Shown piece after piece: positions 28,966 to 40,266 of a stretch of DNA of 64,000 nt. Positions within the stretch are counted from its first letter, which is position 1; every line of letters starts with the position of its first letter. The notes beneath the pieces were generated by a model, which was not told the DNA's origin, did no database searches, and saw only the letters and a program-made list of their open reading frames with translations. The position numbers were made by a program, and so were the translations under genes. Source of the stretch: Candidatus Melainabacteria bacterium 17Bon1m (GTDB lineage: Bacteria; Cyanobacteriota; Vampirovibrionia; Obscuribacterales; Obscuribacteraceae); contig JAVLKG010000002.1 of assembly GCA_032128875.1 (NCBI GenBank), forward strand, positions 640,001-704,000, read 5' to 3'.

Positions 28966-29814
28966 TCATTTATAATCCCCCATCAGGTCGTCATCCAGAG
29001 ACTTGATGGCTTTTGATTGCTCTTCCGCGCCCTTCTTATTTCCGACAATTTTGTAAACCTTTAGCAAACCTACATGAGCTTGTCTCATATCAGGAGAATG
29101 CTTCAGAATCTCATTGAAGTCTGCAATTGCTTTTTCATATTGTTTGGTTTCCACATAGGCTTGTGCTCTGTGTTCTAAGAGAGTCCAGTTGGAAAAGTTT
29201 CCTTTTTTGAGGGCGATTATGCGCGAGCTATCTTCAATGACTTTTGGCCAATGCTTCAGCTTGCGTGCTATCTCCAAACGCCGTGATCGCACAATGTCAT
29301 CGTTGGGACGCTTAATTACAAGCAGGTCCAATTCCTTCTCTGCTTGGTCCGCCTTTCCAACCAATCTAAGTATCTTTGCTCTGGACAAACGACAATCAGA
29401 TTCTTGATCTCCTTTTGCAAGTTTGACACCTTGATTTGCACACTCAAGTGCTTCATCATTGCGTTGCAAATCTGCCAAAATTTCCGCTTTCGTCTTCCAG
29501 CTATAAGGATTTTTTGGATTGAGTTTGAGTGCCTTTTCTACGCATGGGAGAGCTTCCTCGACTTCATCCATTCGCTCTAAAATCAGGGCTTTGCATTCCC
29601 AAAAGTATGCTCGTTTTGGGTCAAGCCTGATTGCCTGGTTGATGTGCTGGAGAGATGCTTCACGCGTTGATAGGTTTTCAAACTCAATCATTGCTCTCTG
29701 TCGTAGTTGCTCTGCTTTATCATCAGCGGCATACGTTAGAGGTGTTTGCAACAACAAAGTTGCAGCGATTGCTAATGCCAGTTTTGTCTTCAAGTAAATG
29801 TCGTGGCAACGCAT
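28966..29814 (-). CDS. Exported TPR protein
   Basis: Signal peptide; TPR helices (AIRLDPK, ALKLNPK, RAQAYVETKQYEKAIADF). Confidence 0.85.
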   Translation of the reverse strand: MRCHDIYLKTKLALAIAATLLLQTPLTYAADDKAEQLRQRAMIEFENLSTREASLQHINQAIRLDPKRAYFWECKALILERMDEVEEALPCVEKALKLNPKNPYSWKTKAEILADLQRNDEALECANQGVKLAKGDQESDCRLSRAKILRLVGKADQAEKELDLLVIKRPNDDIVRSRRLEIARKLKHWPKVIEDSSRIIALKKGNFSNWTLLEHRAQAYVETKQYEKAIADFNEILKHSPDMRQAHVGLLKVYKIVGNKKGAEEQSKAIKSLDDDLMGDYK

Positions 29815-29908
29815 AATGGCACTTATAGGCGCTAAGTCCTATATTTTAACTGTAATTCTGTTATCTGTGAAACAATATTCGGGCGTATTTCAAGCTGGAT
29901 GCATACCA

Positions 29909-31267
29909 ATGTCTGAGTTTTTCTTTCGGAATCTCAAAAAGACTTATCCCACCGTTGCTTCTGCAAAGGGAGTGCGAATTACCGACGCCGACGGCCGCAC
30001 ATATCTTGATGCTTGCAGCGGAGCTGTTGTGTCAAACATTGGGCACGGCGTTGCTGAAATAAATGAAGCGATCAATACTCAGCTCAAAAAAGTCGCTTTT
30101 GCGCACACGACGCAGTTTGTATCGGAAGCTGGACTGGAACTAGCGAAGAGGGTGGTGGACTTAACATCGCCAGAATTCAGAAGTGGTGCGCGTACGTATT
30201 TTATGTCCGGCGGTTCAGAGGCTGTGGAAACCGCCATCAAAATGGCGCGTAGTTATTTCGTGCATAGAGGGGAGAATAAGAGAACCATTTGTTTTTCACG
30301 TTGGCAGAGTTATCACGGAAGTACATTTGGTGCGCTTTCTGCGACGGGACATCCAGCTCGTCGTAAGCCCTATATTCCTTTGCTTCGTGAGCCTTCGCAC
30401 GTTGGTGCGGATTATCGTTATAGATGCAAGTGCGGGTTTGGACCTAGTCCTTGTTCAAGTGATGAATGTTCTATCGCTGCGGCAAATGAGTTAGAAGCTG
30501 CGATTATTAGCGCTGGTCCAGAAACTGTAATGGCATTTCTAGCAGAACCAATCGTTGGGGCGACATTGGGAGCTGCCGTTCCTGGTCTTGCTTATTTCCC
30601 TCGAATTCGGGAGATTTGCAATAAATATGGTGTTCTTCTCATCGCAGATGAAGTGATGACTGGTCTCGGCAGAACAGGCACCACATTTGGTATGAATCAC
30701 TTTAATGTGGTACCGGACATGATTGTATTAGGAAAGGGAATGGCTGCTGGATACCAGCCACTAGCAGCGGTGCTTGCTTCCGGCAAAGTTGTTAAAGCTT
30801 TTGAAGATAGCAACGGTATTTTTGAACACGGTTTTACGTACAGTGCTCATCCTGTTTCATGCGCGGCAGGTCTAGCGGCAATTGAATATGTTCTAAAGCA
30901 CAACTTGATTGAAAGAGTTGCGGAAAAGGAATCTGAGTTTTTCAAGCGCGCAGAGAAACTTCTCGAAACCGGAATAATTGGCGACATTAGGGGAAAGGGC
31001 TTCATGATGGGTATCGAGTTCGTGAAAAACCTAGAAACGAAACAACCCTTTCCGGCCAACATTCGAATCTCTCAGTTTGTCGCGCAAGAGGCTATGAAAA
31101 ATGGACTGCTTGTTTATCCAGGTTCTGGCTTCCTAGATGGAGAGCTTGGTGACCATATTATGGTGGCACCACCTTTCACAACAACAGATGAAGAACTCGA
31201 CGAGATGTTTGAACTTCTAGGAGAAACACTGAATAAAGTTGCGCAACACATAGGCGGTGTTACGTAA
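29909..31267 (+). CDS. Class III PLP aminotransferase
   Basis: YLDACSG, SGGSEAVE, SYHG, LIADEVMTGLGRTG, LGKG, HGFTYSAHP. Confidence 0.93.
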   Translation: MSEFFFRNLKKTYPTVASAKGVRITDADGRTYLDACSGAVVSNIGHGVAEINEAINTQLKKVAFAHTTQFVSEAGLELAKRVVDLTSPEFRSGARTYFMSGGSEAVETAIKMARSYFVHRGENKRTICFSRWQSYHGSTFGALSATGHPARRKPYIPLLREPSHVGADYRYRCKCGFGPSPCSSDECSIAAANELEAAIISAGPETVMAFLAEPIVGATLGAAVPGLAYFPRIREICNKYGVLLIADEVMTGLGRTGTTFGMNHFNVVPDMIVLGKGMAAGYQPLAAVLASGKVVKAFEDSNGIFEHGFTYSAHPVSCAAGLAAIEYVLKHNLIERVAEKESEFFKRAEKLLETGIIGDIRGKGFMMGIEFVKNLETKQPFPANIRISQFVAQEAMKNGLLVYPGSGFLDGELGDHIMVAPPFTTTDEELDEMFELLGETLNKVAQHIGGVT

Positions 31268-31363: not shown

Positions 31364-33277
31364 TTACCCGCGCTTATTCTTCGTCTCTTTCTCTGCAAGT
31401 TTTGCAGCTTTGTCGCGAAGCTTGGCAATATTTTGGCGCATCTTCTCTGCTTCCTTAATCGGCTGATTAGGATTGAGAGACATGTAGTTGTGATATTGCT
31501 CAGCGGACTCCATCAACATCGTTGAATTAGCCTTCTGCATTTTCTCCAGCGATCTCGCCAAACCGAGTCGAGCATCTGCAAGCGTCGGATTTGTGCTGAC
31601 TGCATGGCGGTATCTGTCGATTGCACCGTCAAGTTGATTTTTCTTGAAAAGTTCGTCGGCAACTATGACGTCGTCTTTCGATACTTTTCTCAAACGAGCG
31701 ACTTCGTCCAATCCGCGCTGTGCGCGTTCTGGCGCCCCAGATAAAGTGATGGCTTTCTTGTAGGCCGCCTCCGCATTATCGAGGTCTTTATTCAACATCG
31801 CAACGTCGGCTACTGCGAATGCTTGCTTCGGATCGTTTACGCTGTTTACCACCGTCTTCATCATATCGGTTGCTTTTTGAAACTCACCTTGCGCCATTAG
31901 CGCTTCAGCATAGGCAAGCTTCTCGCCATTGTTTTGCGGGTCTCCCATTTTACTGAGGTCAGGTTTTGCACCAGCCAGCGACATCAATTTTGCCTGAGCG
32001 AGGCGCAGCTCGAAATCATCTGGGCTGAGTTTGATAGCTTCATCAAGACTCTTCAATGCAGCCTCATAGTCGTTGGAGGCAAGAAGTGCTCCAACTGCCG
32101 CTTTCTGTGCCTTGATGTAGAGACCCTGGCTTAAACCTTTTACAGCTTGTGGATTATTTGGGCTCATCTGGAGAATGGTTCTAAAACCCTTGATTGCATC
32201 ATCTGCCTTCTCGAGTTTCAAACAAATTTCTGCAATGCGTTGGCGCAAATCGATATCGTAGGGAATCTGCGACAAACCCGAACGCAGGTCGGCGAGCGCC
32301 AATTCGAGATCGCTTCTGCTTTCGCGAATGTCTGCGATTTTGAGGTAAGGCTGTGCATTTTCCGGCTTGATCAAAATTGAGAGTTGATATTCCTTTATTG
32401 CTGCAACCTGATTTCCTTGTTGTGCATAGGCATCACCAAGAGCCATGCGAACCGGCCAACTGTTGGGGAACTGGTAGAGAGAAGTATTCAGTTCTTTAAT
32501 GGCATCGTCGACTTGCCCTTGTTTCAAATAAACAGAACCAAGACCGAAGTGGGCGGTTGAATTGCTTGAGCTAATATTGATAGCGCGTTTGAAGTTTTCT
32601 GCAGCTTCCGCGAGGCTGCCTTGATCGAGTTTAATTGTTCCGAGCGTCGACAAAGCTTGCGAATGTTGTGGGTCAAGACTTACTGCCGTGCGCAATTCTT
32701 GTGCGGCGTCTTCAATGCGCCCTTGTTCTTTATATACTTGCCCGAGCGTGAAGTGTGCTTCTCCGGATGCGGGTGCCAAAGCGGTTGCCCGTCTTGCGTA
32801 GTCTTCAGCCTGACGCAAATAAGAATCGCGGTTGTCTCTGATAGTGCCCGATGAAGATTGCAGGCGGTTCAAAATGACGTTGGCTTTTCCCGCGAACGCC
32901 AATGCATTATTAGGATCCGACTTCAAAACACGGTCGAGCATGTCGTCCGCGCCGTCCAATTTGAATTGTTTTGCAAGCGCTGTGCCCAAACCAACTGTTG
33001 CCGCAAGATCAGCAGGATTGTTGACGAGCAGTTCTCGGAACATTTCCTCCGCCTCTGCATAACGTCCTTGGGACATTAGTTGTTCGGCGGGAATGATGTC
33101 AGACTTGATCTTGCCGGTGAGGATTTGGTTTTGGTTGGGAGGTGGAGTGGTTGATGTGGCAGGCTGGGTTATCCCAGGCAATTGAGCGCCAGCGGTATGA
33201 GGGTAGAAAACGATCAGCCCGGATACTGCTAGAAGTCCGAAAAGGCTCAAACTTCCTGCTTTTCTGATGGCGGTCAT
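31364..33277 (-). CDS. Exported multi-TPR protein
   Basis: Signal peptide followed by many TPR repeats (AHFTLGQVY, AHFGLGSVY, ALGDAY). Confidence 0.9.
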   Translation of the reverse strand: MTAIRKAGSLSLFGLLAVSGLIVFYPHTAGAQLPGITQPATSTTPPPNQNQILTGKIKSDIIPAEQLMSQGRYAEAEEMFRELLVNNPADLAATVGLGTALAKQFKLDGADDMLDRVLKSDPNNALAFAGKANVILNRLQSSSGTIRDNRDSYLRQAEDYARRATALAPASGEAHFTLGQVYKEQGRIEDAAQELRTAVSLDPQHSQALSTLGTIKLDQGSLAEAAENFKRAINISSSNSTAHFGLGSVYLKQGQVDDAIKELNTSLYQFPNSWPVRMALGDAYAQQGNQVAAIKEYQLSILIKPENAQPYLKIADIRESRSDLELALADLRSGLSQIPYDIDLRQRIAEICLKLEKADDAIKGFRTILQMSPNNPQAVKGLSQGLYIKAQKAAVGALLASNDYEAALKSLDEAIKLSPDDFELRLAQAKLMSLAGAKPDLSKMGDPQNNGEKLAYAEALMAQGEFQKATDMMKTVVNSVNDPKQAFAVADVAMLNKDLDNAEAAYKKAITLSGAPERAQRGLDEVARLRKVSKDDVIVADELFKKNQLDGAIDRYRHAVSTNPTLADARLGLARSLEKMQKANSTMLMESAEQYHNYMSLNPNQPIKEAEKMRQNIAKLRDKAAKLAEKETKNKRG

Positions 33278-33467
33278 GCAATTCCTCCTTGCAAAGTCAC
33301 CAAATTCCTTATTTCAGAACGCTTCTTCAAGCGACAGGCTCGGCGTTTGCACGCAGAGCACAAGGCGAAGGTAACAGACCTTCGGTCCTGAAGTATTAGA
33401 AGGAGGGGTTTTACTTCGGATTTGAGGATAAGTCGATACAAGATTCTTAATGAAACCTTGCGACCTA

Positions 33468-33497
33468 TTGACAAATCCCGAAATCTTGCCGCACACT
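33468..33497 (+). promoter_or_regulatory. Candidate sigma70 promoter of the argC leader
   Basis: Perfect TTGACA (33468-73), 18-nt spacer, weak -10 CACACT. Confidence 0.45.
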
Positions 33498-33531
33498 ACA
33501 TAGGTTGATTCATCAGGTGCTCAAGAGACAG

Positions 33532-33588
33532 ATGCAGCTTATGCAAGCCCAACAAGTTATATCCCGACGCCGCCCAGGTCTCTTTTAA
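33532..33588 (+). CDS. Putative arginine leader peptide MQLMQAQQVISRRRPGLF
   Basis: Hand-translated uORF with CGA-CGC-CGC at 33565-73, upstream of a terminator and argC; alternative start ATG 33541. Confidence 0.7.
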   Translation: MQLMQAQQVISRRRPGLF

Positions 33589-33636
33589 GGCCCGGCGCAG
33601 ATATGGCTTAGCTGATTTAGCACCATTTTCGAGTTT

Positions 33637-33666
33637 AGCCCCGGGTCCAAGGACCAGGGGTTTTTT
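33637..33666 (+). terminator. Attenuator terminator upstream of argC
   Basis: agcccc-g-ggtc-caag-gacc-a-gggg followed by T6, about 20 nt before the argC start. Confidence 0.8.
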
Positions 33667-33685
33667 GTTTTAGGGCTTGTTCAAG

Positions 33686-34753
33686 ATGGATACACAGATG
33701 AAGAAGATTGCGGTTGTCGGAGCTACAGGTTACACAGGTCAGGAGTTGATCAGAATTCTGGTTCAGCATCCCAATGTGAAAGTGCACACTGCAGTTTCTT
33801 CCACCAACAGCGGCAAGTCGTATGCGTCGGTTTATCCAGGGCTGTCAAAATTGGCCGATTTCACTTGCAGTGCTGATGACATTGATACGTTGTCTTCGCA
33901 AGTCGATCTGATTTTCCTTGCATTGCCTCATGGACTTGCGGCCAAAATGGTCAGCAAGGATGTGTTAGAGAAATGCGCGATTGTTGATCTCGGAGCTGAT
34001 TTCCGGTTGAAGAATGCCGGAGATTATGATGAATGGTACGAGTTCACTCACCCAAATCCTCAATTGCTCGATTGTTCTGCTTATGGACTGCCAGAGTTGA
34101 ACAGAGAAAAAATCAAATCTGCAAAGTTGATTGCTAATCCTGGTTGCTATGCAACCTGTTCAATTCTCTCATTGGCACCACTACTTAACGCTGGGCTGAT
34201 TGATGAGTCCACAGTCATAGTTGATGCAAAGTCTGGAGTCTCTGGTGCGGGAAGAAGTCTTTCGCTGGGAGTCCACTTCGACGAGTGTAATGAGTCCATC
34301 AAGGCTTACAAACTCGGTAGCCATCGGCACACTCCCGAGATCGAGCAAGCTCTGAATCCTTACGCGAAGAGTTCGCTGGCCATCTCGTTTACGCCACATT
34401 TGGTTCCTATGAACAGAGGAATTCTATGTACTACATATGGATCTTTAAAGAAAAAGATGTCAGATAAAGATCTCTTTGATCTCTATAGTGAATTCTATGA
34501 AGATGAGCAATTCATCAGGATCTTCGATCCGCAATCAGGCGAGTATAAATATCCAGAGACGCGTTGGGTTAAAGGATCTAACTATTGTGATATCGGACTC
34601 AGCGTCGATAAGAGAACCAGCAGAGCGATAGTCGTCGGGGCCCTAGATAATCTCGTGAAAGGCGCAGCAGGACAGGCAGTTCAAAACATGAACATCCACT
34701 TTGGCTGGCAAGAATCTACAGGTTTAACTCACGCTCCAATTTTTCCGGCGTAA
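33686..34753 (+). CDS. argC: N-acetyl-gamma-glutamyl-phosphate reductase
   Basis: VVGATGYTG, ALPHG, DLGADFR, ANPGCY, SGVSGAGR, HRHTPEI, DNLVKGAAGQA. Confidence 0.97.
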   Translation: MDTQMKKIAVVGATGYTGQELIRILVQHPNVKVHTAVSSTNSGKSYASVYPGLSKLADFTCSADDIDTLSSQVDLIFLALPHGLAAKMVSKDVLEKCAIVDLGADFRLKNAGDYDEWYEFTHPNPQLLDCSAYGLPELNREKIKSAKLIANPGCYATCSILSLAPLLNAGLIDESTVIVDAKSGVSGAGRSLSLGVHFDECNESIKAYKLGSHRHTPEIEQALNPYAKSSLAISFTPHLVPMNRGILCTTYGSLKKKMSDKDLFDLYSEFYEDEQFIRIFDPQSGEYKYPETRWVKGSNYCDIGLSVDKRTSRAIVVGALDNLVKGAAGQAVQNMNIHFGWQESTGLTHAPIFPA

Positions 34754-34779
34754 CAAATTTTGCAGATATCCCAGAATTA

Positions 34780-34809
34780 TTGACAGAAAAAATCCACAGC
34801 GTGTATATT
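34780..34809 (+). promoter_or_regulatory. Internal sigma70 promoter for argJ-argB
   Basis: TTGACA (34780-85) - 18 nt - TATATT (34804-09). Confidence 0.65.
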
Positions 34810-34832
34810 TGAATCTCAAGGAAATTTTTGAC

Positions 34833-34922
34833 ATGCAATTCAGCAAATCTCTCAGACACAACCGACGATTCCCCCGACGCCGCGCCAACGCGCTTGGGGA
34901 TTGCTCGCATACGTTGATTTAA
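34833..34922 (+). CDS. Putative arginine leader peptide MQFSKSLRHNRRFPRRRANALGDCSHTLI
   Basis: Hand-translated uORF with 6 Arg codons (AGA, CGA CGA, CGA CGC CGC); AAGGA upstream; followed by a terminator and argJ. Confidence 0.78.
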   Translation: MQFSKSLRHNRRFPRRRANALGDCSHTLI

Positions 34923-34946
34923 TACAACACTGCAAGAGATCTATAT

Positions 34947-34982
34947 TCCCCGAGTGCCCCCATCAAGGACTCGGGGATTTTT
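34947..34982 (+). terminator. Attenuator terminator upstream of argJ
   Basis: 9-bp stem tccccgagt/actcgggga followed by ttttt. Confidence 0.8.
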
Positions 34983-35016
34983 CTATGCATCTGTTTTTTG
35001 TTTGAGGAGATCCGAA

Positions 35017-36297
35017 ATGAATTCATTCACCACCATCATCGATGCGCATGCCTTGGCTGTTCAGGGCAAGGTGGTAGAAGCCCCTTTCAGCGGAAGCGTC
35101 ACCAGCGCAAAAGGCTTTAAGGCAGCCGGTGCTCACATCGGTGTAAAACGCAAAAGAAAAGATCTTGCTTTGATCTATAGCGAAGTTCCAGCAACTGTCG
35201 CCTGCATGTTCACTACCAACGTGATGAAAGCTGCGCCGATTCTGTGGAACCAGAGTGTTGTAGCTAAATCTCAAACAGTTCGTGGCATCGTCATCAACAG
35301 CGGCAACGCCAACTCTTGCACTGGCAAAGAAGGCCTGGAAAACGCAGAGATTATGGCTGCCACTTACGCTGATTGCATTGGTGTGAAGCCTGAGGAAATT
35401 CTTGTTTGCTCCACAGGTGTCATCGGCGTTCAACTTCCCATGGAAATCATCACGAAGGGCATCATCAACACGGCGACGTCCCTAGAGCACTCCAAGCTGG
35501 CTGGACAATTAGCAGCCGAAGCGATTATGACCACAGACACTTATACGAAACAGATCTCCGTAGAGTTCGAAGTCGGCGGGAAGAAGGTAGTACTTGGCGC
35601 GATGGCAAAAGGCAGCGGCATGATTCACCCGAACATGGCGACGATGCTTAGCTTTATCACGACCGACCTGGATATTGCCCCGCACATGCTGGAGAAAGCA
35701 CTGAAAGACAGTGGTGCCGATACCTATAACATGATTTCGGTTGACGGTGATACCAGCACGAATGACATGGTGGCAATCATGGCGAACGGACTGGCCGGCA
35801 ATGAAACTATCGTCAGCGAGGATGCCGGCTACTTCACCTTTTGCGAAGTGTTGAAGCAGGTAAACACACATCTGGCGAAAATCATTGTTCAAGACGGCGA
35901 GGGTGCAACCAAATTCTTGGAAGCCCAAGTGACATCTGTCGGATTGAAAGAAGATGCCAGACTGCTTGCACGTTCCATCGTTTCTTCCAGTCTGGTAAAA
36001 ACAGCGTTCTTCGGAGAGGACGCGAATTGGGGCAGAATCATCTGCGCAATGGGATACAGCGGCGCGAAATTTGATCCGGCTCACGTTTCAATTTCTCTGG
36101 AAAGCGCAGGCGGGATATTAGAACTCTTGAAACATGGCGAGCCGGTCTGCGTCAATGAAATTCTTGCGAAGCAAATTCTTGCCGAGAAGAACATCATCAT
36201 TCATGTGAACATGAATACCGGAATCGAGGAAGCTACCGCGTGGGGTTGCGATCTCAGTTATGACTACGTGCGGATTAATGGCTCTTACAGAACTTAG
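35017..36297 (+). CDS. argJ: Bifunctional-type ornithine acetyltransferase/N-acetylglutamate synthase
   Basis: INSGNANSCTG, STGVIG, IMTTDT, KGSGMIHPNMATML, DGDTSTND, DGEGATK, DANWGR, GCDLSYDYV; AGGAGA RBS. Confidence 0.97.
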   Translation: MNSFTTIIDAHALAVQGKVVEAPFSGSVTSAKGFKAAGAHIGVKRKRKDLALIYSEVPATVACMFTTNVMKAAPILWNQSVVAKSQTVRGIVINSGNANSCTGKEGLENAEIMAATYADCIGVKPEEILVCSTGVIGVQLPMEIITKGIINTATSLEHSKLAGQLAAEAIMTTDTYTKQISVEFEVGGKKVVLGAMAKGSGMIHPNMATMLSFITTDLDIAPHMLEKALKDSGADTYNMISVDGDTSTNDMVAIMANGLAGNETIVSEDAGYFTFCEVLKQVNTHLAKIIVQDGEGATKFLEAQVTSVGLKEDARLLARSIVSSSLVKTAFFGEDANWGRIICAMGYSGAKFDPAHVSISLESAGGILELLKHGEPVCVNEILAKQILAEKNIIIHVNMNTGIEEATAWGCDLSYDYVRINGSYRT

Positions 36298-37206
36298 GTG
36301 ACCGAAATGACACTGGCAACTTTTAAAGGCACGATATTACAGGAAAACTTTGATGCCCTCCCGAATTCTACTTTCGGGTTGAGTACAGATGGTGATCCGA
36401 TTGTTGTCGTAAAATTTGGCGGCAACGCCATTATGAATCCCAAAGTCCTCGATCAGCTGATTGAGGATACTTGCTCGCTCATCAGCAAAGGTGTACGTGT
36501 TGTTCTCGTACATGGTGGTGGCACCGCTGTCAATGATGCTCTTAAATCCGTTGGGAAGGAAACGCAGAAGATTGGCGGTTTGCGAGTCACAGACGATCAG
36601 ACATTGGAAATCGCTGTTGATGTTTTCACAGGCATCAATGAAAAGCTGACCGATAAGTTTTTGGCAAAAGGAGCGCAAGCACTCAGCTTTTGCTCCAAAA
36701 CTATCAATCCTTTTCTCAGCAAGAAAATGGAATTTCAAGATCCCCAAGGCAATGATGTCGACCTCGGCTGGGTCGGTGAAATTGTCGATGTCGATGCCAC
36801 CAAGCTTGATCGGTGGTTGTGGGCAGGCTGGATGCCTGTGATTTCGCCTTTCGGCAAAGATAAGAATGGGCAGCTCTACAACCTCAACGCAGATCACGCT
36901 GCGTTGGCTGTAGCGACATATCTGAATGCCGACGCCCTGATTTTCCTTACGGACGTTCCGGGAGTTTTGCGCGACGTGCAAGACCCTACTACCAGAATCA
37001 GCCACCTCACCCCAGCGCAGGCGCAAGTCTGTCTGGAAGAAGGGACGATTTCCGGAGGGATGCTTCCAAAAATCAAAAGCTGCTTGAAATGCCTAGACAA
37101 TGGCGTTGAGAAAATCGCCATTTTGAACAGCTTTGCGCCTCACGCATTGCTCAAAGGGTTTTCCGCACCTGAGAAATATGGAACAGTCCTGACACGAGCG
37201 AGTTAA
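36298..37206 (+). CDS. argB: Acetylglutamate kinase
   Basis: VVKFGGNA, VHGGG, GLRVTD, NLNADHAA, LTDVPGV, GGMLPK. Confidence 0.95.
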   Translation: MTEMTLATFKGTILQENFDALPNSTFGLSTDGDPIVVVKFGGNAIMNPKVLDQLIEDTCSLISKGVRVVLVHGGGTAVNDALKSVGKETQKIGGLRVTDDQTLEIAVDVFTGINEKLTDKFLAKGAQALSFCSKTINPFLSKKMEFQDPQGNDVDLGWVGEIVDVDATKLDRWLWAGWMPVISPFGKDKNGQLYNLNADHAALAVATYLNADALIFLTDVPGVLRDVQDPTTRISHLTPAQAQVCLEEGTISGGMLPKIKSCLKCLDNGVEKIAILNSFAPHALLKGFSAPEKYGTVLTRAS

Positions 37207-37306
37207 ACCTCGTAGCTTAAAATCGAGCAAATAGGGCAACACTGCACAATTCAACAGTGCTTTCAAACGCGCCTAGCCATACCATGACGGCATTGAAGCC
37301 GGGAGT

Positions 37307-39691
37307 ATGGCGATGCCACGATTTGAAAAATCTGAGAACAAAACTGATGGTGCCCTAGGAGCATTTGACAGAGCTTCGGATAAATCTTCAGGCGATGAGA
37401 ATTCGGGCGATAAAACAGCGCGCGGTTTTGATTGGTTCGGCGCGAATTTTGTTAACCCGCTGGTCAACACACTTTGTGTGGAACCTGCCAATGCGATCAC
37501 TCAGACGGTAGAGAGAGCGGCCGGACAGTCGCCTTTTCATCGTGTAGAGCCTCTGCCTGTCCCTGACACTTCTAAACGACCGATCTCAACCGAATTGGTT
37601 AGTCAGAGTGTAGCGTGTGCGATTGGATCTGTCGGACCTTATGCTCTAGCAGGAATGCTTGCCGGCAATGCCATGCGGTGTGCTGGTGCTGCTCTGAAAA
37701 CTGAAGGAGCGATTGCAACCTTTGCGCAAAATGACAAGGTTGCTCAGATCGTAGGAGCTGGCGTTTACGATGGAATGAAGGAAACTCGTCAGGGCGAGAC
37801 TCACTTGCGTAATGGAATAGCTGGCGCTGCCAGCTTTGCGGTATTGGAATACTCGCGTGTAGATCCTCGTGCTAGCTTGATTGGCCGCTCCCTTGATCGA
37901 TTCAGTTCGGGTTTTGTAGGCTCGCTTACTCATGTAGCTATTTCGCGCCCCGATGCTTTTTCCCTGAAGGCTCCTTCTGATATCAATATTTCGTCGAGCC
38001 TTTTGACGGGCGCTTTTATAAATGTTTTGCTCCCTGGCACTCAGCAGGGCTTACGGATGTTGCAAGAGAAAGCATCTTTGAGAATGGGTCGCGGCATTCC
38101 GATCGACAGATATCTGGTGTCGAACAGTTCTCATGTCAATGCAGAAACAATAAACGCTCGCGCCGAATTTACTTCTGCCACCACGAAAGAATTGTTTGAG
38201 CAAAACCGCTGGGCAAGAATTGAACCTGATTCAAAATTTGATTGTTACTTGCCAAAGCGAGATATGGTTTCACTAACGAGTGGTAGCTCTCGTGAAACGC
38301 TTTTGCATGAGCTTCACCACCGCAAAGAAGCTTTGGCTGGAATTGCAGAACCAGGATTTGTTCAAGCTGCCGCCTACTTAAATAAAGACGTGAATCGAGC
38401 CTGGCAAATCTTTGCTCGGGTACGTCGCGCTCAAGAAATTCGAGCTGAAATCGCAGGCCGCCAAGAAGTCAACGCTTCGGGGCTAACGAGTAAGGCAGAA
38501 TTCGTCAATGAACTTAAGAGAACGCTTCCTTCGGCCCGCTTTGCCGGCGGTGACTCATACATACAGCTTTGGCGTCGAGAGTTCCAGGCGTTTTTGCGCT
38601 CTGGCGGAAAGTTTCGACCTGAAGCCGATTACTCAAAGTGTCGTTTTAACAAGGAAATCAGAGATGAGGCCAACAGGCTTTATGTGCGTTTAGCGGGTCG
38701 AGAACCGAATGCCGGCAATGCCATCGATGGTGTGATTGAAAGGCATTCTCTAAATGACGAGCAAGTTCTAAGCGTTTTTAAACACGTAAATGAATTTCTC
38801 AAGCCTAAGTACAGCACTGCCGTTCAGCTTCCGTTGCCCTTTCTTGCGATGCAAACTTTGCGTTTGGTTGCCCGACCGGAAAAGGTCAAGCAGGGATTTC
38901 ATCCGACTTGCGGACCCGCAGCTCTTGAGTATGCAACTTATGTGAAACATCCTGAGAATGCTGCGAGTTTGATTTCGCAAGTAGCGCTAACCGGTAAATA
39001 CAAGTGTGCGGATGGTACTTCAATAACGCTTGACCTATTGAATGTAATACCTGAGAGGACAAAGACTAGAAGTTTTGCGAATCAATTGTTTCAGACTACC
39101 TCTGTGAACGTGCACTGGCAGAGAAAAACTAGTCTCGAACCATGGCTGTACTCAGGTGATGGAATTGACAATAGTATTACGGCTGGTGCCATTCGATATG
39201 AAAGGCAGCCGCACAACTCATCTAGTCCAGACTTGTATCGGCTCATGGACTATAGCAAAAAGCCGGTACGGCCACTTCAGGACAGATTGGCACCGGAGTT
39301 GCGCAATGATATGGCTGATCCTTTGATGGACTGCAACAGTCTGAATGATATCAATGGGCAGATAAATGGTGGCACGCATGGTGACATCGCCTTGCCTTGG
39401 GACCTGCACTCTCAGCAAGTTTTGGAAAGAACACTGAGAGAAAGACACCTGACAGGTCGGCTGCCTGTCTTGACCGTCATAGACTGCAGGCATCCACTTT
39501 TTCGTCATGGAATGGAGGATCCGCTTCCTGATGTTGGTTGGCACATTGTGGCGGTTCGAGGATATGACCCTGCCACAAAAACGGCGTCAATATTCAATCC
39601 GTGGGGGCACATTCTCAATGGTATAAGCACACGCGATTTGTACAAGGCAAACAAAGAATTTAAAATCTCAACTGAGAACAAGAGCCTGTAA
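37307..39691 (+). CDS. Large signal-less protein with HExxH motif and C-terminal papain/calpain-like cysteine protease domain
   Basis: LLHELHH..E; KQGFHPTCG, WHIVAVRGYD, IFNPWG (Cys/His/Asn). Confidence 0.65.
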   Translation: MAMPRFEKSENKTDGALGAFDRASDKSSGDENSGDKTARGFDWFGANFVNPLVNTLCVEPANAITQTVERAAGQSPFHRVEPLPVPDTSKRPISTELVSQSVACAIGSVGPYALAGMLAGNAMRCAGAALKTEGAIATFAQNDKVAQIVGAGVYDGMKETRQGETHLRNGIAGAASFAVLEYSRVDPRASLIGRSLDRFSSGFVGSLTHVAISRPDAFSLKAPSDINISSSLLTGAFINVLLPGTQQGLRMLQEKASLRMGRGIPIDRYLVSNSSHVNAETINARAEFTSATTKELFEQNRWARIEPDSKFDCYLPKRDMVSLTSGSSRETLLHELHHRKEALAGIAEPGFVQAAAYLNKDVNRAWQIFARVRRAQEIRAEIAGRQEVNASGLTSKAEFVNELKRTLPSARFAGGDSYIQLWRREFQAFLRSGGKFRPEADYSKCRFNKEIRDEANRLYVRLAGREPNAGNAIDGVIERHSLNDEQVLSVFKHVNEFLKPKYSTAVQLPLPFLAMQTLRLVARPEKVKQGFHPTCGPAALEYATYVKHPENAASLISQVALTGKYKCADGTSITLDLLNVIPERTKTRSFANQLFQTTSVNVHWQRKTSLEPWLYSGDGIDNSITAGAIRYERQPHNSSSPDLYRLMDYSKKPVRPLQDRLAPELRNDMADPLMDCNSLNDINGQINGGTHGDIALPWDLHSQQVLERTLRERHLTGRLPVLTVIDCRHPLFRHGMEDPLPDVGWHIVAVRGYDPATKTASIFNPWGHILNGISTRDLYKANKEFKISTENKSL

Positions 39692-39759: not shown

Positions 39760-40266
39760 TTGGCTGACATCGAAAATATTGGACGAATAAAGCGTATGAC
39801 GTTGCCCAACGGGTGGACTCCTACGCGGCAGGTGCTAGGACAGTTCGGCAATAGCTATCTGTATCATTATGGACGTTCTGACACGCCGGAGCTTCAACTT
39901 TCGATCTTTTACCGCGGGATGAATGTTTCGTCTCTCTCGGGAAAAACATTCGAGCGGATTTTGAAGAAGGAACCTCATGAACTGAGCTCAGAAGCTATAT
40001 TGAGCATTACTGAGGTTTTGGGAAGCTGCGCGCAGCCGGATCTCTATGATCTAGAACGCGCCAGCAGCAAATCACTTTCTGATTCAAATGTAATTGATGT
40101 AGAAGGACGCTTTCCCGAGGTCGGCCTTGAGAATCGCACCATTTTTATCAATGGTGGCAATGATGGTTGCGTGGTGCTGGAAATTATTTTCTCTGCGCCA
40201 AAGAAGGTTTTTCTCAAACACGCGCCTGAAATTGAGCGCTGCTTGCAGTCTATCGAATGGAAATAG
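39760..40266 (+). CDS. Hypothetical protein, possibly PsbP/Mog1-like fold
   Basis: MTLPNGW near the N-terminus and 'F...IE..LQSIEW' C-terminus; directly downstream of the protease gene. Confidence 0.55.
   Translation: MADIENIGRIKRMTLPNGWTPTRQVLGQFGNSYLYHYGRSDTPELQLSIFYRGMNVSSLSGKTFERILKKEPHELSSEAILSITEVLGSCAQPDLYDLERASSKSLSDSNVIDVEGRFPEVGLENRTIFINGGNDGCVVLEIIFSAPKKVFLKHAPEIERCLQSIEWK

Follow-up and report, generated by a model that had tools for sequence, protein, structure and literature searches.

Arginine-codon leader peptides as probable transcription attenuators of arginine biosynthesis genes in the non-photosynthetic cyanobacterial family Obscuribacteraceae

Leader-peptide attenuators have been described in enterobacteria, where they include trpL, hisL, leuL, thrL, pheL and ilvL, and several of them are represented in Rfam (Trp_leader, His_leader, Leu_leader, Thr_leader and Phe_leader). 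Arginine is a textbook pathway under the control of a repressor (ArgR/AhrC) or, in some Firmicutes, of T-boxes, and to our knowledge it does not figure among the pathways that textbooks give as attenuator-controlled (trp, his, leu, thr, phe, ilv). The present work concerns a stretch of 64,000 nt (hereafter the window, in which position 1 is the first letter) from Candidatus Melainabacteria bacterium 17Bon1m (GenBank assembly GCA_032128875.1, contig JAVLKG010000002.1, forward-strand positions 640,001 to 704,000), in which the spacer between argC and argJ carries a short upstream open reading frame (uORF) with a run of Arg codons. A previous sequence-only reading of this spacer had proposed an attenuator in front of argJ-argB. 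As judged from sequence and modelling, the argJ leader is very probably a ribosome-mediated leader-peptide transcription attenuator sensing charged tRNA-Arg, and one of three homologous leaders located before argC, argJ-argB and argF-argG-argH.

The closest experimental precedent seems to be, from the accessible part of its report, Salmonella speF orf34, in which low-arginine pausing at two consecutive Arg codons redirects mRNA folding (PMC6386406). The accessible text of an Actinobacteria survey reports that no RNA element was observed before arginine operons, and mentions arginine as T-box-regulated in other species (PMC1262725). Similarly, the word arginine is absent from the portion available of a broad attenuator survey (PMC2965389), and the available part of a survey of non-coding RNAs in 26 genomes contains Cys and Phe uORF motifs, and no Arg motif (PMC8632094). 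In the open-access literature, as far as the accessible texts go, all matches to the term 'arginine attenuator' refer to the fungal uORF peptide. The sequence-only reading knew of no well-described classical attenuator for arginine biosynthesis genes, and indeed no bacterial leader-peptide attenuator of these genes was found in the open-access literature, while the subscription literature may hold an earlier prediction.

The argJ leader comprises the following features, given by their positions in the window.

34780..34809, + strand: promoter-like TTGACA-N18-TATATT (TTGACA 34780-34785, TATATT 34804-34809)
34819..34822, + strand: AGGA, likely Shine-Dalgarno sequence of the uORF, 10 nt 5' of ATG 34833
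34833..34922, + strand: uORF of 29 codons plus TAA (ATG 34833, TAA 34920-34922)
34872..34884, + strand: segment 1, the 5' arm of the 1:2 hairpin, overlapping the CGA-CGC-CGC codons
34889..34900, + strand: segment 2, whose partner is segment 1 or, as antiterminator, 34947-34957
34914..34922, + strand: stop cluster TGATTTAA, containing a TGA invariant in alignments and used as in-frame stop by other genera (TAA 34920 being the stop here)
34947..34982, + strand: intrinsic terminator (segment 3 at 34947-34955, a 13-nt loop, segment 4 at 34969-34977, and TTTTT at 34978-34982)

The promoter-like site, which the sequence-only reading had also noted, agrees with the consensus at 11 of 12 positions, and a pattern scan of 33200-37400 found no better promoter-like (sigma-70-like) site. 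The uORF encodes MQFSKSLRHNRRFPRRRANALGDCSHTLI and agrees to the base with the earlier description, including its six Arg codons (AGA 34854, CGA 34863, CGA 34866, CGA 34875, CGC 34878 and CGC 34881), grouped as RR and RRR. The minimum free energy (MFE) fold of the leader reaches -60.7 kcal/mol (z = -3.46), a stability equalled by none of 200 shuffles. It holds the 1:2 hairpin overlapping the Arg run (34872-34884 with 34889-34899), together with the terminator, a GC-rich stem of 9 bp lying between the uORF and argJ (34947-34955/34969-34977) and followed by the T-tract at 34978-34982, and both structures had been proposed earlier. This terminator escaped the pattern scan because its loop of 13 nt exceeds the limit of 8 set for the scan. 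The competing 2:3 pairing, or antiterminator, had been proposed between 34893-34900 and 34947-34954; the pairing itself stands, but its extent had been underestimated, as 34890-34900 can pair with 34947-34957 over 11 bp, including two G-U pairs, thereby excluding the terminator.

That the argJ leader is more than a chance arrangement follows from its Arg density and, above all, from its conservation and recurrence. ArgJ was found in 25 of 41 relatives, and the argJ loci compared here comprise 19 from the family Obscuribacteraceae (L001-L018 and L026, in our own numbering) and seven from other families of the class (L019-L025). Of the 19 family loci, 18 retain a uORF with its Arg run, the antiterminator strand and the terminator, the peptide being divergent outside the run; the exception is L016 (genome G015), with a short unstructured spacer only. 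No such leader occurs at the seven argJ loci from other families; the class also includes gut lineages with genomes of 2 Mb, which are represented among the relatives. Within the genus, all congeners retain TTGACA, AGGA(A) is located 8-12 nt 5' of the start codon, and the leader peptide reads MQFSKSL.HNRRFPRR(R)A.ALGD..., with 4-6 Arg. In other genera the peptides are very different, and each contains an Arg run: MNASASALSLRPSRRPLRRSSRRRLRRSGPVWLC (10 Arg), MQPLYTNAANNRRPRRAPKHSGLV, MLNQATATREQARRRSVRLFTNSVPRRLS and MNSISTSASNNYAVSPRLRRPRFSASSGKSRHS; the peptide of L012 has 10 Arg. What is retained across the family argJ leaders is the Arg run, segments 2-4 and the position of the stop, and in the 18-sequence alignment the columns without variation correspond to CG in the Arg run, GG in segment 2, the TGA that follows it, and CCCC/GGG in the terminator arms.

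Among 37 distinct leader peptides, a few of which are extended to upstream GTGs by the choice of start, Arg accounts for 17.7% of residues (186/1048), versus 5.3% for 1326 long ORFs of the source genome. Each leader has between 3 and 10 Arg codons, whose usage is synonymously variable (CGC 68, CGA 66, CGT 20, AGG 15, AGA 15, CGG 2), with CGA making up 35% of leader Arg codons versus 12.5% genome-wide. The tRNA-Arg genes of the source genome carry the anticodons ACG (two copies), TCG, CCG, TCT and CCT. Over segment 2, the main clade of the genus (CTT GGG G) is read one base out of phase with L011 and other genera (C TCG GGG); despite this difference, the register of the RNA elements is unchanged and the Arg codons remain in frame with the start codon. 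Such behaviour of frame and synonymous codons, as read from the alignments, is the signature of a leader peptide in which only the regulatory residues are important.

The pairings are conserved along with the Arg runs, as the sequence-only reading would lead one to expect for upstream regions of related argJ genes. In the 18-sequence alignment, 95.9% of cells are paired for the 1:2 hairpin and terminator taken together, with 6 pairs showing double-sided changes; none of 500 shuffles reaches any of five measures, and only 18.7-53.2% of cells are paired when the partners are slid by 1-3 columns. The terminator alone is paired in 98.1% of cells across the 18 sequences, with 3 covarying pairs, and it is independently recovered by RNAalifold from a 20-sequence alignment, in which 7 of 14 predicted pairs covary. 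The 1:2 hairpin was not recovered by RNAalifold on these 20 sequences, and MAFFT aligns it poorly in distant genera. For the antiterminator, 93.9% of cells are paired versus 30.9-57.1% when slid. In L007 and L026, a terminator G-C pair has become A-U, and the same base change turns an antiterminator U-G pair into U-A.

The argJ leader does not stand alone. An nhmmer profile built from argJ leaders only, and run on the source genome (G000; 7.55 Mb, 35 contigs, 93% complete), returned exactly two additional sites at E <= 0.001, one 5' of argF-argG-argH (E = 2.9e-15) and the other 5' of argC (E = 0.001), the next match having E = 2.7. The features of these two leaders are as follows.

33468..33473, + strand: TTGACA, conserved -35-like box of the argC leader, with CACACT (33492-33497) as a weak -10 after an 18-nt spacer
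33532..33588, + strand: argC-leader uORF, encoding MQLMQAQQVISRRRPGLF (ATG 33532, TAA 33586)
33589..33595, + strand: argC-leader segment 2, GGCCCGG, pairing in folds either back to the Arg-codon region or forward to 33641-33647
33639..33666, + strand: argC-leader terminator (stem 33639-33660, 9 bp with one mismatch, then six T)
G000:C1:491751-491890, on another contig: third leader, with a uORF encoding MTFANYTSNNRRTRRVLLNSGPAGLR and then a terminator

The argC-leader uORF contains three consecutive Arg codons (CGA 33565, CGC 33568 and CGC 33571). TTGACA...GCCGCACACTACAT is common to the argC leaders of congeners, whose uORFs keep ...VISRRRPGL... and mostly extend to a TAG in the conserved stop cluster; in the source genome and in G011 the uORF ends early, at TAA. 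A covariance model (R1), made of 18 argJ leaders and two paralogues, matches the argC leader at 33559-33666 with E = 2.6e-13. The genes 3' of the third leader encode ornithine carbamoyltransferase, argininosuccinate synthase and argininosuccinate lyase, i.e., argF-argG-argH (to C1:495498). The single argJ-argB site of the sequence-only reading is thus real but understates the system: three homologous leaders form a regulon rather than a single site.

How far does this type of leader extend? R1 matches 19 of the 41 relatives, namely 18 out of 24 family genomes and none out of 16 from seven other families of the class; it matches 11 of 30 family genomes and 0 of 120 genomes from ten other families in a class-wide sample, and 16 of 41 genomes of a family sample at E <= 1e-6, the counts from searches of more than 40 genomes being lower bounds, as stricter filters were used for these. 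Matches in the relatives and the class-wide sample span 12 genera of Obscuribacteraceae, and there are usually three copies per genome within the genus. All 44 profile matches at E < 1e-5 among the fetched loci, which are not 44 independent sites as some of them overlap, have an in-frame uORF with adjacent Arg codons, beginning with ATG in 37 cases and with GTG or TTG in 7. Lower-scoring family matches (27.8-64.9 bits) show the same layout, with a TTGACA promoter-like box, a uORF with an Arg run (RRR to RRRRR) and a terminator in 14 of 14 checked, and NCBIfam assigns the genes 3' of them to argF (6), argJ (4), argG (2) and argB (2). In every case examined in the family, the gene 3' of the leader is argJ, argC, argF, argG or argB.

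Among 80 public ArgJ loci, mostly from Clostridia, Gastranaerophilales and Bacillota, R1 gave E < 0.2 only in L060, a metagenome-assembled genome (MAG) of the same genus, and in L062, an Obscuribacteraceae MAG with the leader peptide MKSVSYIANTNRRSRRVRMKDSGQ. Nine weak phylum-wide matches (27-38 bits) in photosynthetic cyanobacterial families were rejected, since every one of them lacks an Arg uORF and is a terminator located at the 3' end of a gene. The stop cluster together with a CCCCGA-type terminator is also present at ordinary gene 3' ends of photosynthetic cyanobacteria (L140-L148), which accounts for false matches to the covariance model. No genuine copy outside Obscuribacteraceae was found with R1 in the class and phylum samples or at the public ArgJ loci, and the family therefore appears to have evolved its own Arg leader.

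The usual regulator of the pathway seems to be missing from the source genome. Neither TIGR01529 nor PF02863 found an ArgR gene, for which the sequence-only reading had suggested a search, in this 93% complete assembly (ARG-box operators were not searched for); as positive controls, the two models match in 9 and 8 of 14 genomes, respectively. None of the 13 genomes examined in the genus yielded an ArgR, and the 41 relatives include only 3 with one. In the family sample, whose 41 genomes were searched with both queries, 9 have ArgR, five of them without a leader and four with one, while ArgR was not found in any of the 6 genomes with two or three leaders; the remaining genomes lacking ArgR have one leader (6) or none at E <= 1e-6 (20). 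In the separate sample of relatives, several family genomes have no ArgJ found. In G015, whose argJ has no leader, the contig with argJ also carries ArgR, at a distance of 5 kb. The presence of ArgR and the number of leader copies thus look complementary, a lead rather than a test, as the genomes are related and few. Regarding other known control elements, Rfam cmscan of 33000-37000 at E <= 10 gave three chance-level matches to unrelated families, none of them over the leader, and no T-box match.

Taken together, conservation, pairings kept across genera, switching under a simulated ribosome footprint (see below) and the ArgR gene not being found support the attenuator interpretation first given by the sequence-only reading. 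We infer that the uORF is translated, that ribosomes stall at its Arg codons, that termination efficiency depends on this stalling, and that the genes respond to arginine in the following way. Transcription would start at about 34816 from the TTGACA/TATATT promoter, and the uORF would be translated while being made. When Arg-tRNA is plentiful, the ribosome would pass the Arg codons and reach the stop cluster, 21 nt behind segment 2; a ribosome located on segment 2, or parked between segments 2 and 3, would block the 2:3 pairing, and behind a passing ribosome segment 2 would re-pair with segment 1, leaving segment 3 free to form the terminator with segment 4, so that RNA polymerase would stop at the T-tract and not reach argJ. 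Under scarcity of Arg-tRNA, the ribosome would stall on CGA-CGA or CGA-CGC-CGC and cover segment 1, allowing 2:3 to pair over 11 bp before segment 4 is made; the terminator would not form, and argJ-argB would be transcribed.

Folding simulations are consistent with this sequence of events provided that the order of transcription is respected. Transcripts were cut before segment 4, with segment 3 already out, and the ribosome footprint was masked from P-12 to P+15. Without a ribosome, all three leaders of the source genome fold the 1:2 hairpin and leave segment 3 unpaired; with the footprint on any Arg codon of the runs, all three switch to the 2:3 antiterminator. In a set of 11 representative leaders, 2:3 forms for at least some stall position in 11 of 11, the fractions of Arg positions giving 2:3 being 6/6, 3/3, 5/5, 4/5, 8/10, 3/3, 4/4, 2/5, 3/5, 5/7 and 5/5. 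In the absence of a ribosome, segment 2 is sequestered in 5 of the 11 (the three of the source genome, L017 and L018).

Several observations nevertheless weigh against the attenuator as described. The switch that the sequence-only reading expected from folding with a masked footprint is obtained in the cut transcripts but not at full-length equilibrium, where the terminator is the MFE structure at 5 of 6 stall positions of the argJ leader, the antiterminator prevailing at the remaining one, CGA 34875 in the A site; the switch must consequently be kinetic, as in classical systems. The antiterminator is already the MFE structure without a ribosome in 6 of the 11 representative leaders (L011, L012, L013, L014, L015 and L062). 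A strong 1:2 hairpin is hence not universal, and in the lineages where it is weak, termination would have to rely on a translating or terminating ribosome occluding segment 2. What speaks for the antiterminator in the alignment is mainly conservation, with 1 double-sided pair, a number reached by 203 of 500 shuffles. The promoter of the argC leader has no convincing -10 box, and was not called by the pattern scan. Finally, leaders of this type were not seen before argD, carA and argS of the source genome, so that control of the pathway would be only partial.

[quoted passage not shown] The stop follows the core of segment 2 by 16 nt in 6 of the 11 representatives, by 17 nt in another, by 21 nt in the argJ leader of the source genome, and by 7 and 4 nt in two more. 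At 16-17 nt, a ribosome whose A site is on the stop would have segment 2 at its trailing edge, while in the argC leader of the source genome the stop precedes segment 2, and a terminating ribosome would cover it. A nearly invariant GyTGAT(T)TAG/TAA behind segment 2 provides stops in two frames, and the one in use differs by lineage (TGA in most genera, TAA here, and TAG in the argC leaders of congeners). We read this cluster as a device that would halt ribosomes before the terminator whichever frame they are in; that it also serves ribosomes frameshifted at hungry Arg codons is speculation. From these elements a broader proposal can be drawn, which we advance tentatively, its chances seeming to us slightly short of even: Obscuribacteraceae lacking ArgR may control arginine biosynthesis by a regulon of their own, made of up to three paralogous attenuators that sense Arg-tRNA, the first such class described for arg genes, in which the two-frame stop cluster, fixed 16 nt behind the antiterminator strand, would park every ribosome (including those frameshifted at hungry Arg codons) where antitermination is blocked and the terminator left untouched.

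Could the RNA do without the peptide? A large part of what is conserved is nucleotide sequence (CCGACG, GCTCGGGG, and, behind segment 2, GGCTnnGyTGATTTAG), the motif following segment 2 has no proven role, and the frame over segment 2 varies by lineage, as would be the case for a conserved RNA switch run by a trans-acting factor, either a TRAP/PyrR-type protein or a small ligand, with a uORF that is incidental to CG-rich pairing strands. We nevertheless consider this very unlikely. In all 44 matches, and in the 14 further ones from other genera, a start codon opens an ORF that spans the Arg run, the Arg codons range from 3 to 10 and are always in frame, and synonymous changes between them, including from CGN to AGA/AGG, alter letters involved in pairing. 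In addition, stop codons in two frames account well for the conserved motif, and Rfam returned nothing but chance-level matches in the region.

A marginally less probable explanation keeps the peptide and changes what it senses. The uORF product could act as a nascent arrest peptide responding to free arginine or ornithine in the ribosomal tunnel, as do SpeFL, TnaC and the fungal arginine attenuator peptide, rather than to tRNA charging, and a partly conserved N-(N)-R-R-x-(P)-R-R core, often after Asn, is indeed found in many leaders. However, arrest peptides need a specific sequence, whereas only the Arg run and the preceding Asn are shared between genera; moreover, a ligand-induced stall at the Arg run would lead to read-through at high arginine, the wrong sign for biosynthetic genes. 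Least likely of all, and very improbable, is that the hairpin is simply the terminator of argC, for which the pattern scan found no other, with a promoter-like site that is constitutive for argJ or unused and an Arg-rich uORF that is an untranslated chance sequence, since the promoter lies 5' of the hairpin, which its transcripts must therefore cross, the same architecture precedes argC, argF-argG-argH and, in other genera, argB or argG with no arg gene upstream, and the leader of L014 is present although its upstream neighbour is not argC. A leader-peptide attenuator sensing charged tRNA-Arg remains by far the reading we favour.

The genes flanking the argJ leader in the window are the following.

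33677..34753, + strand: argC, N-acetyl-gamma-glutamyl-phosphate reductase (TIGR01850, 455 bits versus a cut-off of 233.6)
35017..36297, + strand: argJ, bifunctional ornithine acetyltransferase/N-acetylglutamate synthase (TIGR00120, 490.9 bits, above the NCBIfam cut-off)
36298..37206, + strand: argB, acetylglutamate kinase, directly after the argJ stop (TIGR00761, 200.9 bits, above the NCBIfam cut-off)

The ribosome-binding site of argJ is GAGGAG at 35005-35010, and the true start is ATG 35017, not GTG 34954. Directly 3' of argB is an ORF of 794 aa (37307-39691, + strand), which has no NCBIfam match at E <= 0.001, nor does a further ORF of 168 aa (39760-40266). On the other side, a 637-aa protein with TPR repeats (31364-33277, - strand) is encoded divergently from the argC leader, and its top partial match, below cut-off, is the PEP-CTERM system TPR protein PrsT. 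It is preceded in the window by a class-III aminotransferase ORF (29798-31267, + strand; PRK07483, above cut-off), the best argD match of the genome being instead on contig C3. Regarding transcript data, the region 33300-37300 is present as contigs of 21-38 kb in three RNA-Seq-labelled libraries from one plankton sample, which are probably DNA carry-over and may represent the sample from which the assembly came, and the four short contigs of a lake metatranscriptome all fall inside argC, argJ and argB, leaving the leaders uncovered, bearing in mind that contigs cannot show transcript ends.

If the proposed mechanism is correct, the conserved Arg leader regulon indicates that ribosome-mediated attenuation has been recruited for arginine too, and offers a first concrete handle on gene regulation in Melainabacteria and Obscuribacteraceae, which have no genetics. 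The leader would represent a compact, portable sensor of Arg-tRNA. Moreover, the lack of a detectable ArgR in genomes with at least two leaders, while relatives bearing ArgR have one leader or none, suggests the replacement of one regulator by another.

Compared with known systems, the Arg leader resembles Salmonella speF orf34 in that ribosome pausing at consecutive Arg codons would refold the downstream mRNA. According to the accessible part of that report, however, speF orf34 has two Arg codons only, controls ornithine decarboxylase rather than arginine synthesis, and operates through Rho-dependent termination, unmasking of a ribosome-binding site and RNase G sensitivity, with no intrinsic terminator and antiterminator (PMC6386406). 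With an Arg-specific T-box the Arg leader would share its target genes, the charging of tRNA-Arg as the signal that is read, and a terminator with an antiterminator, but its proposed sensor is a translating ribosome instead of direct tRNA binding. The target genes are also those of ArgR/AhrC repression, from which the source genome differs in that no ArgR gene was found in it. The closest likeness in architecture is to the classical enterobacterial attenuators: a short ORF in the leader, in which codons for the amino acid made by the pathway form a run, a peptide free to vary outside these regulatory codons, and four segments that can pair as 1:2, 2:3 and 3:4, the last being an intrinsic terminator just before the first structural gene. 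Unlike them, the Arg leader would read arginine, its host is a non-photosynthetic cyanobacterium of the Obscuribacteraceae, and its three paralogous copies form a regulon; its stop is usually located 16 nt behind segment 2 and not inside it, its 1:2 hairpin is weak in 6 of 11 representatives, and it has no sequence or covariance-model relation to any Rfam leader family. What appears to be new here is thus the application of the classical attenuation mechanism to a new amino acid and in a new lineage.

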